A DNA stretch of 64,000 nt. Origin: Halobacteriovoraceae bacterium. GTDB taxonomy: Bacteria > Bdellovibrionota > Bacteriovoracia > Bacteriovoracales > Bacteriovoracaceae. The notes below the pieces were generated by a model. The model was not told where the DNA came from. It worked only from the letters and a program-made list of their open reading frames with translations, and made no database searches. The translations under genes and the position numbers were made by a program. This document shows, in pieces, positions 42,721 to 55,131 of the stretch (position 1 is the first letter of the stretch; every line of letters begins with the position of its first letter). The DNA lies in the NCBI GenBank assembly GCA_963719505.1, contig CAVRCF010000002.1:32001-96000 (forward strand). Direction: 5' to 3'.

Positions 42721-43509
42721 ATGAGAAATACACAAGTAATTACCGGACGCAAGAGATCTGAATTTTCTCGATTTGCTGCACTGAGTACAATTTTACGAAC
42801 AACCGAGGTTCAAATCTGTATCGGCCTAATTATCATAGGCCTAGTGACGATCTTTGCCAAAGAGCATATTGCAACCTCTCAACTCAATACTATTCAACCT
42901 CCTTCCTATTCTTTCTCTGATGTGAAGTTTGGTTTTGCTGATGCTGGAGTGACTCTAGAGAGTCGTCTTAATCTTGAGCACTCTCTTTTGATGTCTTTGC
43001 CTGGAGATATTAGAGGGAGAGCGAAGCCTTTTATCAAAGCAATTTTAAAGATCAGTGAGATTTATAGCCTTGATCCGATCTGGGTCTCTTCTGTTGTTTG
43101 GACAGAAAGCCACTTTAAGCCCCGTGCAAATAGTCCTATTGGGGCCAGAGGTCTTATGCAGCTAATGCCTACGACGAAAGCTTATATTTATAAGAAACTC
43201 AAAAAACGAAAAATGTACCTTATTGTTGAGAAACCTAATTTTAGACTCAGTGAGTTTTTTGATTTTGAAATCTCAAAAGAGGAAGAAAAGTATTACGCCG
43301 ATCGTCTCGTTAACTTGGAGATTGGAATCTTCTACTTAAAGCGCTTGCTTAAAAGATTTGATGGCCAACATAGGATTGCGACTATTGCTTACAACATGGG
43401 ACCGACTTGGACCCGAAGAAAGCTTCGAGAAAACTATCCTTTAGGCTCAAAAAATAATTATTTAGCAAAAGTCACAAGAGCTTATGACCATATTTTAAAA
43501 AGTATCTAA
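42721..43509 (+). CDS. SLT-domain lytic transglycosylase, membrane-anchored
   Basis: LDP..V..V..TES.F.P.A.S..GARGLMQLMP.T and AYNMGP motifs. Confidence 0.9.
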   Translation: MRNTQVITGRKRSEFSRFAALSTILRTTEVQICIGLIIIGLVTIFAKEHIATSQLNTIQPPSYSFSDVKFGFADAGVTLESRLNLEHSLLMSLPGDIRGRAKPFIKAILKISEIYSLDPIWVSSVVWTESHFKPRANSPIGARGLMQLMPTTKAYIYKKLKKRKMYLIVEKPNFRLSEFFDFEISKEEEKYYADRLVNLEIGIFYLKRLLKRFDGQHRIATIAYNMGPTWTRRKLRENYPLGSKNNYLAKVTRAYDHILKSI

Positions 43510-43931
43510 TGATGAATGATCTTGAAACCTCCAGAGCAGATCTGCTGGTCAAAACACAAGACCTTGTGAATTTGATTGTTCAAAGAAAGAAACTTGTCTC
43601 AAAAATTCAAAAATTAAAAGCAAAAAATACTCCTTTTGGAAACTTTGATCCAGAAAGAGAGTTTTTGGTTTTTCGAGGCCTCGACAATATCTCGAGCTTC
43701 AGCATGCTTGAACTTTTGAGCCTCTCGTGCATAATGGAAGATCAAGCGAGGGCCGATGGTTCATATCCTGCATGGAGCCAAGGCGAACACTTAGAGGAAA
43801 AGTTTCCACTTGGTGTTGAACAGCAAATTAATCCCATTTTACTGGCCACGGTTTATCCCAGTCGTTATGATTCCTTGCCTCTAAAAGTTGAGTTCAAAGT
43901 GGCAATTGAAAAAGCCTCGGAGAGAAAATGA
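43509..43931 (+). CDS. Chorismate mutase type II (AroQ)-like protein
   Basis: LVNLI.QR..LV.KI.KLK......FDPERE pattern; sits just upstream of cmk. Confidence 0.55.
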   Translation: MMNDLETSRADLLVKTQDLVNLIVQRKKLVSKIQKLKAKNTPFGNFDPEREFLVFRGLDNISSFSMLELLSLSCIMEDQARADGSYPAWSQGEHLEEKFPLGVEQQINPILLATVYPSRYDSLPLKVEFKVAIEKASERK

Positions 43932-44655: not shown

Positions 44656-45660
44656 ATGATCTCTCAATCAAGACTAAATGAAATAACGAAAAAATTTGAT
44701 CAAATAAAACCTATTCTTGTTATAGGTGATGTTGGGATTGATAAATATTCTTTGGGGGCAGTCAATAGAATTTCCCCTGAAGCACCCGTGCCTGTTATTG
44801 AAGTGCAAAAAGAGTGGATGAAACTTGGTCTTGCGGCCAATGTCTCTGATAACTTAAAAAGTCTCTGTGTTGCGACAACTCTTTGTGGAGTGATCGGGGA
44901 TGATAAAAACGCCAACACTCTAGAAGAATTACTGGAGGAGTCAGAACTTAAAACCTGGGGACTTGTCAGAGATGAACAAAGAATGACAACTTTCAAAGAG
45001 CGAGTCGTCACCAGTGTTCAACAAATTTGTCGAATTGATTATGAAACAAAAGAGGGCATCTCCAATAGTACCTATGAGAGACTGAAAGAGAGATTTAACG
45101 AGTTTAAAGCCGAGCACTCCTCAATTATTCTTGAAGACTATGGTAAGGGGCTTTTTACAAAAACAGTTCTTGAATTTATTTTGAGCGATGCAAAAGAAAA
45201 TAACTTAAAAACATATGTCGATCCATCTCGCTCGACACCAGCCCATTGGTATAAAGGAGCAAGCTTCTTAAAGCCCAATGAGGTGGAAAGTGAAATCCTC
45301 GTCAAAGGACTGGGCTTTGATAAGAAAACCTCTATAGAGGAAAGAGCTAATATCCTAGTGGATAAACTAGATCTCGAAAAAGTGATCATCACCTTAGGTG
45401 CAAATGGTATGGCTTTACTAGATACAAGCACAGATGGAAAGGTTCACATTATTCCTACTGTTGCCAAAGATGTCTTTGATGTTTCTGGAGCGGGGGACAC
45501 TGCAATTAGTGCTATCGTTGCCTCTTTATCTGCTGGAGCAACTCTTGAGGAAGCTGCCTGGATTGGTAATTGCGCCTCTGGAATCGTGGTGGGTAAAAAA
45601 GGAACGGCTCTCGTTACTGTAGAAGAGCTAAAAAAGTATCACTCCAATCTCTCTTTTTAA
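44656..45660 (+). CDS. rfaE1: D-glycero-beta-D-manno-heptose-7-phosphate kinase (stand-alone RfaE domain I / HldA)
   Basis: RISPEAPVPV, DYGKG, KPN..E and DVSGAGDT motifs. Confidence 0.9.
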   Translation: MISQSRLNEITKKFDQIKPILVIGDVGIDKYSLGAVNRISPEAPVPVIEVQKEWMKLGLAANVSDNLKSLCVATTLCGVIGDDKNANTLEELLEESELKTWGLVRDEQRMTTFKERVVTSVQQICRIDYETKEGISNSTYERLKERFNEFKAEHSSIILEDYGKGLFTKTVLEFILSDAKENNLKTYVDPSRSTPAHWYKGASFLKPNEVESEILVKGLGFDKKTSIEERANILVDKLDLEKVIITLGANGMALLDTSTDGKVHIIPTVAKDVFDVSGAGDTAISAIVASLSAGATLEEAAWIGNCASGIVVGKKGTALVTVEELKKYHSNLSF

Positions 45661-45753
45661 AAAAGCCAAAGAGCTGCGCCAATAAACTTTGGCAAAGTCA
45701 GCAAAATGGTGCTTAAACCATTTCGGACTGGATTTTTGTAAGCGACCGAAATA

Positions 45754-46168
45754 TCTCACTTTAAGTCTTAAATGCACAAACCTCTTTTTTCAAAGTGTGT
45801 TGGGCTTTATCATGAAGAGAACAAATACCCGTCGAAACGGTGACTGTGTTGCGAAAGCCTCAGGAACAAAGTTCTGCCCTAAACAATACTGCATGGGTTG
45901 AGGGAACTGCCGAAACGGTTGAAAAGACAATTGCCCTTTGTGTTTGGATACACTTTAAACATGTCGGGTCACCTTATGGTTCTAAACTTTAAGGCGAGGG
46001 AGGTTGTGCTTTTTGGGAGGTTCTAGTGGGGCCATAACTTGGCTTTTACATTCATAACAACATTCATATTTACATCCCTCGCGGGAGAAATGGTAAAACC
46101 ATTAATTTAGCTAACACGCATTTCTTAAAATAAATCAGACCTGAGCATAGCCTCGGGTCTTTTTTTTT
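45754..46168 (+). ncRNA. Structured non-coding RNA with a degenerate c-di-GMP-I/cGAMP (GEMM)-like module; possible merRNA counterpart; boundaries approximate
   Basis: Nested long-range stems with G-U pairs on the + strand (45754-60/46025-31, 45774-84/46000-09, 45792-801/45947-56). GEMM-like order GAAA hairpin-GAC...GCGAAAGCCUC...CCUAAAC...GCAUGG...GAGG..CUGCCGAAA. Ends in a strong terminator. Confidence 0.55.
46137..46168 (+). terminator. Strong intrinsic terminator
   Basis: AGACCTGAG / CTCGGGTCT stem followed by T8. Confidence 0.9.
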
Positions 46169-46274
46169 GTCTAACTAAATCGATTTTGTTAATCTTTGCT
46201 CCACTTTATAAAGTAGGTATAAAGTAAGTTCGAATAATCATCATTAATGATTCATAGCAATAAGTGGGAAGAAG

Positions 46275-47315
46275 ATGTTACAAAAATTAGAAGAGTTACA
46301 AAAAAACTTTGATGCCCAAATTGACGGGTGCCTAAAACAGGCGGAAGTTCTAAATTTAAAATCACAAGTTCTAGGAAAAAAAGGTTCACTTTCTGAAATT
46401 TTAAAGTCCTTAAAAGATGCTTCAAACGAAGAGAGAAAAGCTATTGGACCTAAGTCTAATGAGGTTAAACAACATATTGAAAAAGCTGTCTTGAGTAAAC
46501 TCAATGAGATTGAACTCAAAGAAGTCAATGAAAAGCTAGAGCAAAATAAAATTGATTTCTCACTCCGCGACTCTCTTTTAGAGAGAGGATTGACGGACGC
46601 AGGTGTTCATCCAGTCAATAAGATCCAGCGTGAAGTTGAAGATATCTTTCTTTCTATGGGATTTGATGTCCTAGACGGACCCCATATTGAGGATGAATGG
46701 CACAATTTTGAAGCCTTAAATATTCCAGAGACCCATCCGGCTAGAGATATGCAAGATACGTTTTGGTTTAAAGATATGAAACATCTTCTCAGAACCCATA
46801 CTTCAACCATTCAAGTTCGTGGAATGGAGTCTCGCAAACCACCTTTTAAATTTGTAGGACCTGGAAAAGTCTTTCGTTGTGAAAGAACTGATGCCACTCA
46901 CGAGATGTGTTTTCATCAGTTGGAAGGAATGATGGTTGGTAAGGATATAACCGTTGGAAACCTTATCTATTTTATGAAAACTCTTTTAAAAGAAATCTTT
47001 AAAAAAGATATGGAAGTTCGACTTCGACCAGGGTTCTTTCCGTTCGTAGAACCGGGGTTTGAATTAGATATTAGATGGAAAAAACCAGACCCTAAAAAGG
47101 GAGAGTCGGAGCACTCTGGGTGGCTTGAACTTCTTCCGTGCGGGATGGTTCACCCCAATGTTCTCAAGGCTGGCGGGATAGATCCAGATGAATACAATGG
47201 TTTCGCTTTTGGACTTGGTCTCGATAGGCTTGTGATGGTTCGCTATGCGATCGAGGATATTCGTCATCTGCACTCTGGTGACCTTCGATTTAACAAACAA
47301 TTTAAAACTCACTAA
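46275..47315 (+). CDS. pheS: Phenylalanine--tRNA ligase alpha subunit
   Basis: HPARDMQDTF, LRTHTS, FPFVEP.FE and GFAFGLGLDRL motifs. Confidence 0.98.
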   Translation: MLQKLEELQKNFDAQIDGCLKQAEVLNLKSQVLGKKGSLSEILKSLKDASNEERKAIGPKSNEVKQHIEKAVLSKLNEIELKEVNEKLEQNKIDFSLRDSLLERGLTDAGVHPVNKIQREVEDIFLSMGFDVLDGPHIEDEWHNFEALNIPETHPARDMQDTFWFKDMKHLLRTHTSTIQVRGMESRKPPFKFVGPGKVFRCERTDATHEMCFHQLEGMMVGKDITVGNLIYFMKTLLKEIFKKDMEVRLRPGFFPFVEPGFELDIRWKKPDPKKGESEHSGWLELLPCGMVHPNVLKAGGIDPDEYNGFAFGLGLDRLVMVRYAIEDIRHLHSGDLRFNKQFKTH

Positions 47316-50153: not shown

Positions 50154-51697
<1,544 letters not shown>

Positions 51698-51926
51698 TTA
51701 AGGATATAAATTATCCAGGTCAATACTATTAAACATTTTGGTTCTTTCTCCTCTCTATTTTCTTTATATTTTTAATATAAAAAATTTCTATAAAATTAAT
51801 TACAATCTTCAATTAACTTGGAGTTTTTAATAATCTTATTCTTTGACAATTACATAACAGGATCAGATAGAAGACGAGAACATAGTAAATTAACGATACA
51901 TTTTCGAATGTATCGCCCAAAAAACT

Positions 51927-54853
<2,927 letters not shown>

Positions 54854-54984
54854 TTTAATGTTTTTTGGGAATGTTAATTTACTATGTTTGAATCTTTTAT
54901 CTGATTTTGTTTTGTAATTGCAAAAGCGACGTAGCTGTCGTAAAAGAGCTAAGTTAAAAATATTGCTTAAATTGTTATACGATT

Positions 54985-55101
54985 TGGGTGTGTTTATAGC
55001 GCAGGGGAAACACCTAGTTACATCTCGAACCTAGAAGTTAAGTCCTGTTGCGGCGAAAGTAGTGCATGGGCGACTGTGTGTGAGGTTAGCAAAATGCACC
55101 C
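54985..55101 (+). rRNA. rrf: 5S rRNA
   Basis: Terminal stem GGGTGTGTTT / AAATGCACCC, ACACC...CGAAC...GAAGTTAAG, position after the 23S. Confidence 0.9.
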
Positions 55102-55131
55102 TTTAATTTTTCTCTTCGGGGAAAGATATAT

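Follow-up and report, generated by a model that had tools for sequence, protein, structure and literature searches.

A predicted stand-alone RNA of Bacteriovoracaceae with a divergent c-di-GMP-I-type aptamer, a conserved 3' domain and a putative Met-Gly-Pro frame

The window analyzed here is a stretch of 64,000 nucleotides (nt) from a Halobacteriovoraceae bacterium (assembly GCA_963719505.1, contig CAVRCF010000002.1, positions 32,001 to 96,000), in which a 614-nt gap (45661-46274) separates the open reading frame (ORF) of a PfkB-family sugar kinase (44656-45660) from pheS (46275-47315), itself followed by pheT and then by a ribosomal RNA (rRNA) operon. This gap is predicted to hold a small-RNA gene of about 350 nt on the + strand (from about 45820 to about 46168), organized in silico as a promoter-to-terminator unit and comprising a divergent aptamer of the GEMM-I type (also called cyclic di-GMP-I, c-di-GMP-I), a second conserved domain on its 3' side and a frame of three sense codons. 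A sequence-only reading of the same DNA had considered the gap to be without a credible ORF, which is in line with the absence of any Pfam match for its sole sizeable frame (45689-45901, 70 amino acids), the largest in the gap, which begins 5' of the conserved promoter. That reading had also drawn an ornate fold of about 400 nt starting at 45754 and held together by four nested long-range stems. All 31 pairs of these stems do exist in the window sequence, but they are not conserved. Indeed, in an alignment with three relatives, 58.1% of the positions were paired overall, with 31/31 in the window and about 44% in the others, against 34-40% when the partners were slid, so that pairing outside the window stands at chance level and the ornate fold could not be maintained. 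Besides, the position of the conserved promoter places the 5' arms of these stems (45754-45805) upstream of the transcript or inside the promoter itself.

The transcription unit and its relation to pheS

In the family alignment, the conserved element at the 5' side of the RNA is a sigma-70-like promoter (45785-45813, + strand), with a weak -35 in the TTTTTC region and a -10, TATCAT, at 45808-45813; transcription is predicted to start near 45820. Clearer promoters are found at the aligned place in relatives, such as TTGACA-17-TATTAT (11/12) in genome G011, TTGAAT-17-TATAAT in G010 and TTGTTT-17-TAGAAT in G002. As the conserved element ends at 45813, the start formerly placed at 45754 had to be moved, and the sigma-28 site proposed at 45745, the -35 of which is poor by direct reading, has no conserved counterpart in the family alignment. 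On the 3' side, the strong terminator that had been proposed was recovered. A 9-bp stem (46137-46160) containing five G-C pairs and followed by a T-run forms an intrinsic terminator at 46137-46168 (+ strand), the sole terminator-like site in the gap, where the RNA is predicted to end. Most of the 30 best family loci also have a hairpin with a T-run, located 230-430 nt past the aptamer and, where pheS follows, 70-150 nt ahead of this gene, the hairpin sequences being unrelated from genus to genus.

Contigs from marine RNA libraries cover 45839-46000 (1 mismatch), 45998-46146 (identical), 45850-46013 and 45839-46064. These metatranscriptome contigs show that near-identical sequence is present in RNA libraries and speak neither of transcript ends nor of levels nor of phase. 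Cover of the PfkB and pheS flanks amounted to one 32-nt piece with loose ends, which carries no weight. Two contigs from different studies both stop at 45839, 19 nt past the predicted start, a contig end being distinct from a 5' end.

The location of the RNA could be that of a cis-acting pheST leader, in which conditional read-through of the terminator would set pheST expression by attenuation. Among the 30 best family loci, PfkB lies upstream of the RNA in 27 and pheS downstream in 22, 300-520 nt past the aptamer, as would suit such a leader. The spacer between terminator and pheS (46169-46274, + strand) contains promoter-like hexamers, TTGTTA-17-TAAAGT or TTGCTC...TATAAA, with a best score of 8/12 in the window; the mean score of 7.9 across 22 loci is close to that of shuffled sequences (7.66), which neither establishes nor excludes a promoter of pheS itself and to that extent leaves room for a leader, and the association of a Shine-Dalgarno (SD) sequence, a tiny ORF and a terminator is reminiscent of E. 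coli pheM. However, the RNA is intact in five genomes in which pheS does not follow it (G010, G135, G072, G024 and G055); there, the distance to pheS is 1.5, 2.4, 4.9 or 33 kb unless pheS belongs to a different contig, and in G010 the two are separated by an opposite-strand gene. Conversely, in four of the five examined genomes without a match to R1, our model of the aptamer (see below), the PfkB stop is separated from the pheS start by only about 20-35 nt, with no RNA between them (G001, which belongs to the genus of the window, G009, G014 and G070; loci L131, L132, L134 and L135). Hence, even members of a single genus differ in whether this gene pair encloses the RNA gene. In addition, the mini-ORF described below has no Phe codon, and the terminator, whose sequence is not conserved, lies at least 100 nt past it. 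A leader function is consequently highly improbable. Since the RNA is kept without an adjacent pheS and pheS is kept without the RNA, the RNA is best described as a stand-alone unit, as first claimed from sequence, with its own promoter and terminator in silico and separable from pheS.

A divergent aptamer of the GEMM-I type

The aptamer, of about 95 nt (45827-45920, + strand), was delineated by alignment to the Rfam family RF01051 and by model R1. Its P1 helix pairs ACCCGU (45827-32) with ACGGU (45915-19). Within it, G45839 is aligned to G20, and a 2-bp helix joins G45840-U45841 to A45866-C45867. The tetraloop hairpin occupies 45844-45863 (CUGUGUUGC-GAAA-GCCUCAG, with GAAA at 45853-56) and is followed by the junction ACAAAG (45866-45871), in which A45868 is aligned to A47. 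The P3 receptor hairpin (45870-45908) carries the receptor CCCUAAA (45877-83) / CAUGGG (45892-97), and the C that corresponds to C92 in the alignment belongs to UGCC (45908-11). In this Vc2 numbering, G20, A47 and C92 are the positions that we take to be ligand contacts. The GEMM-like order of elements previously noticed in the gap is therefore a real resemblance, as the alignment to RF01051 indicates, but its individual parts had been mis-assigned. The tetraloop hairpin had been read as CCCGUC-GAAA-CGG instead of the one given above, the "GCAAAG" element had been read as GCGAAAGCC whereas it is the ACAAAG of the junction, and the presumed GAAC-AAA-GTTC hairpin corresponds to the junction together with the 5' strand of P3.

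When a 124-nt segment was searched alone, RF01051 was the only Rfam family that aligned to it, over the full model and with 18.2 bits (E 0.1), so that the cmscan check suggested earlier returned c-di-GMP-I as its only match, but at a score below the gathering cut-off of 35 bits. Better scores were obtained with relatives. Among 151 Bacteriovoracaceae genomes, three copies passed the cut-off (36.5, 36.9 and 35.1 bits) and seven more reached 23.9-33.9 bits. The copy of G010, which belongs to another genus, scored 36.5 bits and was aligned by cmscan over the full RF01051 model; it displays GGUGAC, a GAAA hairpin, GAAACAAAG, a CUAAGG...CUAUGAG hairpin and UUGCC in this order and is the same RNA as the core of the window. 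The assignment to a cyclic-dinucleotide module of the GEMM-I type thus holds. A BLAST search against 41 related genomes matched about 45824-46044 in two congeners and one other genus.

Model R1, built from five copies, scored 120.8 bits at the aptamer of the window. It matched 62 of the 151 Bacteriovoracaceae genomes, in 34 of 69 genera and almost always once per genome; 59 of these matches were kept as genuine, three AT-rich ones being dropped by inspection. In a phylum-wide sample, R1 was found in 9/23 genomes of the family of the window and in 0/127 genomes of 24 other families, which agrees with the earlier description of the RNA as a Bacteriovoracaceae type. When one genome per species was scanned with a pattern, 26 matches were obtained, 14 of which were scored by R1 while the other 12 gave nothing and are attributed to chance. 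The 14 carried the labels Bacteriovoracaceae, Bacteriovoracales, Halobacteriovoraceae or Bdellovibrionota, with the exception of one "Flavobacteriaceae" metagenome-assembled genome and one "uncultured bacterium". At E 0.01 or below, R1 had no match to the canonical aptamer copies of loci L007 and L008. A separate observation concerns G070, where a 45-bit RF01051 match occurs at an unrelated place (G070:C29:2320-2391); the variant RNA is absent from this genome, and PfkB and pheS abut on another contig.

Covarying structure in relatives, named earlier as a check of the RNA, was found in the aptamer. On the 59 sequences, its 17 pairs were formed in 91.9% of the cells, as compared with 69.3% in shuffled sequences and 34-52% with slid partners, and compensatory changes occurred in 14 of the 17 pairs; these values come from related sequences, the counts of which are not independent, and from an alignment fitted, like that of R2 below, to the structure of its model. 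In contrast with these comparative results, folding of single sequences was uninformative either way, with z-scores of -1.48 for the + strand, -0.79 for the - strand and -0.87 for the trimmed RNA, and minimum-free-energy folds do not recover the covarying structure. RNAalifold on MAFFT alignments recovered part of each conserved domain; the structures were set by hand and the sequences re-aligned with R1 and R2.

The columns aligned to the three contacts are G in 58/59 (the lone non-G being an alignment slip), A in 59/59 and CC in 59/59. Most rows of the family alignment also carry the GNRA tetraloop (GAAA) and its receptor. On the other hand, the junction strands read GGYGAC and G(R)RCAAAG in all 59 copies versus GGCAAA and GACGCAAAG in the consensus of RF01051, the 3' side being one nucleotide shorter, and the pair beside the binding pocket is U-A in 26, C-G in 21 and U-G in 11 copies versus C-G in the canonical family. 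As both the curated score and the junction consensus failed, the aptamer is assigned to a variant class rather than to the family proper. Variant classes of GEMM-I are known, namely GEMM-Ib, which binds cyclic GMP-AMP (cGAMP), and the GGC and UAU variants, the change from G20 to A being the switch toward cGAMP. The remodeled junction could bind another cyclic dinucleotide or an unrelated molecule, as in these classes of altered specificity, and its departure from the consensus in every copy speaks for such a change. With G retained at the G20-aligned position, A and C retained at the equivalents of A47 and C92, and the tetraloop and receptor in place, a changed ligand is distinctly unlikely, and the hint of cGAMP specificity given by the sequence-only reading finds no echo at the position that would carry it. 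In its predicted structure, the aptamer follows the GEMM-I / c-di-GMP-I architecture in a diverged form; as both hairpins (tetraloop and receptor) and the contact-aligned nucleotides have been kept, c-di-GMP is its most likely ligand.

The conserved 3' domain and the mini-ORF

Past the aptamer, the members of the family share a constant order of elements: a pyrimidine-rich strand, a variable hairpin, an invariant CGGGUC, a hairpin with a UGGNGAG loop, a purine-rich strand pairing with the pyrimidine-rich one, a U-rich linker, GGGAGG and finally NUG-GGN-CCN-UAR. In the window, the structured part of this 3' domain spans 45933-46001 (+ strand, model R2). Helix Ha pairs CCCUU (45934-38) with GAGGG (45996-46000) and encloses the variable hairpin Hb (about 45940-45955), the invariant CGGGUC (45965-70) and hairpin Hc (45971-45995). 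R2 matched 45 of the 59 family loci, none of the 15 canonical-aptamer loci of another family, f9 (see below), and none of the five pheS loci without the RNA; among Rfam families, no match to the 3' domain was found. Its 18 pairs were formed in 80.3% of the cells, compared with 62.3% in shuffled sequences and 51-57% with slid partners, and 16 of the 18 showed compensatory changes. Helix Ha followed by the U-run was considered as a terminator and dropped because of the 4-8 nt spacer between them.

In 53/53 copies, CGGGUC is also complementary to ACCCGU, the 5' strand of P1, with which it could pair in competition with P1. The mean energy of this pairing is -9.1 kcal/mol, versus -5.5 with the 3' strand of P1 and -4.7 with shuffled partners, which makes it a candidate switching helix. 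Together with the likeness of Ha to an anti-SD/SD pair, this competition gives the 3' domain the look of an expression platform.

The predicted product of such a platform would be very small. A Shine-Dalgarno sequence, GGGAGG (46015-20, + strand), precedes a mini-ORF, GTG GGG CCA TAA (46026-46037, + strand), that would encode Met-Gly-Pro-stop; this frame is a prediction based on conservation. At the aligned place, NTG-GGN-CCN-stop occurs in 29 of the 59 loci, with TTG (22), ATG (5) or GTG (2) as start, and a frame of three codons is found there in 39/59, 4-10 nt past an SD-like run. The other peptides have Gly-Ile, Asp-Pro, Glu-Pro, Ser-Pro, Gly-Lys, Gly-Asn or Gly-Ser after the start codon. 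The third positions of GGN and CCN hold only 0.07 and 0.49 bits of information versus 1.3-1.8 at the other positions, and all three stops occur. In these predicted frames, the variation has the pattern of a code, to be read with the fact that the 39 ORFs are very short and were selected for having both a start and a stop codon, positions 2, 3 and 10 being fixed by this choice.

It is quite possible, if short of an even chance, that UUG-GGN-CCN-UAR is instead a motif recognized by RNA or protein and no frame at all, the SD-like run being part of a fold. The block comprises only four codons, GGNCC is partly palindromic, the SD can by eye pair with CUCC just past the block in some relatives, and the frame is missing at 20/59 loci. 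A recognition motif would nevertheless have to accommodate TTG, ATG or GTG at the start with CTG excluded, each of the four GGN codons, CCA, CCT and CCG, and all of the stops, while the replacements still read X-Pro-stop in four cases (Asp, Glu, Ser). A translated frame would account for these features and is retained below. Pro-stop is a context of slow termination, and peptides that stall at it, such as TnaC, are known, as is the pheM attenuator of E. coli. In C. difficile, small proteins are reportedly placed under c-di-GMP riboswitches.

Downstream of the mini-ORF, a GACAUUCA block (gACA..TT in the alignment) is conserved family-wide at 40-70 nt. The window has two copies of its own version of this motif, ACAUUCA (46048-54 and 46060-66, + strand), 12 nt apart; the motif of family f9 likewise contains CAUUC. 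As to local structure, the Pro and stop codons of the window lie within the 5' arm of a small weak hairpin (GCCAUAACUUGGC) at 46031-46047, followed by UUUU, and a stronger hairpin with a U-run overlaps the mini-ORF in several relatives (e.g., L037, L038, L023 and L028). Such a hairpin over the mini-ORF may act as a first, ribosome-sensitive terminator.

The fifth R1-negative genome, G006 (L133, genus g4), has a gap of about 600 nt before pheS (about 1100-1500 in RNA orientation) instead of abutting genes. Inspection by eye revealed in it CCGUCGA, a run of AAGGAGG, AACAUUCAAA and CCACGGAU as well as a site resembling a promoter, but no aptamer, and model R2 gave no match. The gap may hold a descendant of the RNA that has lost its aptamer.

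A working model and its relation to known systems

We lean, with modest confidence, toward a merRNA-like, stand-alone RNA that senses c-di-GMP and whose 3' domain gates a tiny Met-Gly-Pro frame. This reading starts from what was observed, i.e., conservation, covariation of both domains, a promoter-to-terminator unit and independence from pheS, and from it we infer the ligand, the switching helix and the translation of the mini-ORF with its consequence. According to this proposal, c-di-GMP would stabilize P1 and free CGGGUC. The 3' domain would then refold, and the access of ribosomes to the SD and the mini-ORF would change. A ribosome slow to terminate at Pro-stop could in turn alter the fate or the folding of the 3' part, including the ACAUUCA motifs and the terminator.

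The RNA could also act as a pure c-di-GMP sponge, as the sequence-only reading had suggested, being made in bulk and doing nothing but buffer the second messenger, with a 3' part serving only stability and a frame left untranslated. A stand-alone unit with conserved contact positions in its aptamer would suit this role, as would the presence of contigs of the RNA in metatranscriptome assemblies, and the merRNA paper proposes such a function for an orphan c-di-GMP riboswitch RNA (PMC3627812). However, a sponge needs the aptamer alone, yet the 3' domain, which like the mini-ORF had escaped the sequence-only reading, covaries, an SD is present together with a frame whose third positions are free, and ACAUUCA is kept; one genus (G006) even appears, by eye, to keep 3' features without the aptamer. 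A sponge thus appears unlikely, and a riboswitch with an unusual output is more likely than a bare sponge. A sponge for CsrA/RsmA was considered as well and rejected, the six or so GGA motifs counted by eye in about 350 nt being near the expectation from composition.

Several points weigh against the gated c-di-GMP riboswitch that we favor. Apart from the sub-threshold score of the window copy, a search of 701 nt against Rfam, both at gathering cut-offs and at E up to 10, gave only chance-level small-RNA and terminator matches, and a whole-genome search with RF01051 left the aptamer unmatched (elsewhere in the genome, nothing exceeded 14.7 bits). The identity of the ligand is not secure because the junction differs from the family consensus. 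In the 3' domain, helix Ha is the weakest, with 72% of its pairs formed, and its own partners are superior to no more than about three quarters of the foreign ones. The switching helix rests mostly on complementarity because both partners are nearly invariant, and the covariation behind it consists of a few cases read by eye. Furthermore, 20 of the 59 loci have no three-codon frame and 30 lack the exact Gly-Pro. The relatedness of the sequences, the fitted alignments and the selection of the ORFs mentioned above are to be counted on the same side.

As regards the surroundings, the source genome contains two GGDEF genes, in line with c-di-GMP as ligand. The rRNA operon past pheST (50154-55102) is complete, with 16S, 23S and 5S genes. 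Many relatives have the RNA 4.0-4.5 kb away from the end of its contig, a distance that fits contigs breaking at the rRNA operon and a conserved order RNA-pheS-pheT-rRNA. A 140-amino-acid ORF without a Pfam match is located at 43509-43931, between a gene with an SLT domain and cmk.

Compared with c-di-GMP-I riboswitches (RF01051), the aptamer shares an A-rich 5' junction, a conserved G, a 2-bp helix, a hairpin with a GNRA tetraloop, a CAAAG junction, a receptor hairpin (CCUAAR...YAUGG), UGCC and a closing P1, with the equivalents of G20, A47 and C92 kept. It differs by its score, the window lying at 18.2 bits versus the required 35 and only three family copies passing, by GGYGAC in place of GGCAAA and G(R)RCAAAG in place of GACGCAAAG, and by an adjacent pair that is mostly U-A. 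Besides, it is not located in the 5' untranslated region of a controlled gene, because its own terminator follows and pheS is separable.

The closest relative in organization is merRNA of Bdellovibrio bacteriovorus, a stand-alone RNA of 445 nt containing a c-di-GMP riboswitch, for which the original report describes massive expression in attack phase, a proposed role as sponge and no conservation outside Bdellovibrio (Karunker et al., 2013; PMC3627812). Both are single-copy stand-alone RNAs of predators from the same phylum, with the aptamer first and no protein gene in the unit. In the literature on merRNA, Bdellovibrio and riboswitches of Bacteriovorax, Halobacteriovorax and Bacteriovoracaceae, supplementary homologue lists excepted, the present RNA was not described. 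Family f9, which is probably the Bdellovibrio lineage, has one canonical c-di-GMP-I aptamer in 40/41 genomes; neither pheS nor PfkB is found close to these RNAs, whose 3' part differs, as illustrated by the 0/15 matches of R2. Of the 21 f9 loci examined (L008 and L111-L130; e.g., L008:1586-1715), 15 carry the motif UUCCCCUUAR. In 13 of these 15, an SD is accompanied by a frame of 7-22 codons that starts with ATG and closes at the stop of the motif; the predicted peptides read ME(G/R/V)...(W/R)FHSP-stop, the last part of the frame being the invariant GGUUUCAUUCCCCUUAR. A terminator hairpin comes directly past the stop, and its T-run starts 28-48 nt later in most loci. As the motif shows no synonymous variation, a constraint at the RNA level must be at work as well. 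In both families, a short predicted frame ending in Pro-stop lies behind the aptamer.

This parallel suggests a broader proposal, rather unlikely as it stands, in which the orphan c-di-GMP riboswitch RNAs of predators would gate tiny Pro-stop frames and would not be non-coding sponges. Bacteriovoracaceae would use Met-Gly-Pro-stop with a three-way-junction platform and the sister family FHSP-stop before a terminator, the ribosome at Pro-stop deciding the 3' end or the fold. If true, a second messenger would be coupled to a ribosome-dependent switch inside a stand-alone RNA. The function of merRNA, which is among the most abundant RNAs of attack-phase Bdellovibrio and was thought to be confined to its lineage, has been open since 2013, and the view of an orphan riboswitch as a sponge would gain a concrete, testable alternative. 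Whatever the output, a second family of predators possesses a distinct stand-alone RNA with an aptamer of the GEMM-I type, occurring in single copy and represented by 59 new copies of which three pass the Rfam cut-off, and the defined variant junction (GGYGAC / GRRCAAAG) is relevant to ligand specificity and to the curators of riboswitch families.

Gating of a small upstream ORF by a riboswitch has a precedent in the Mbox/rv1805A system of M. tuberculosis (PMC12810186). This system, pheM and TnaC differ from the present RNA, whose frame is limited to three sense codons and whose unit contains no protein gene to be regulated. Nor is any coupling to a terminator, as in attenuators, apparent in the window, where only the weak hairpin and UUUU (46031-46047) follow. 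With respect to pheM in particular, the frame reads Met-Gly-Pro with no Phe, the terminator is 100 nt downstream, and related genomes either lack the RNA or have it apart from pheS. In common with these systems, an SD and a very short frame, ended here by Pro-stop, lie behind the aptamer, and one or more terminators are located downstream.

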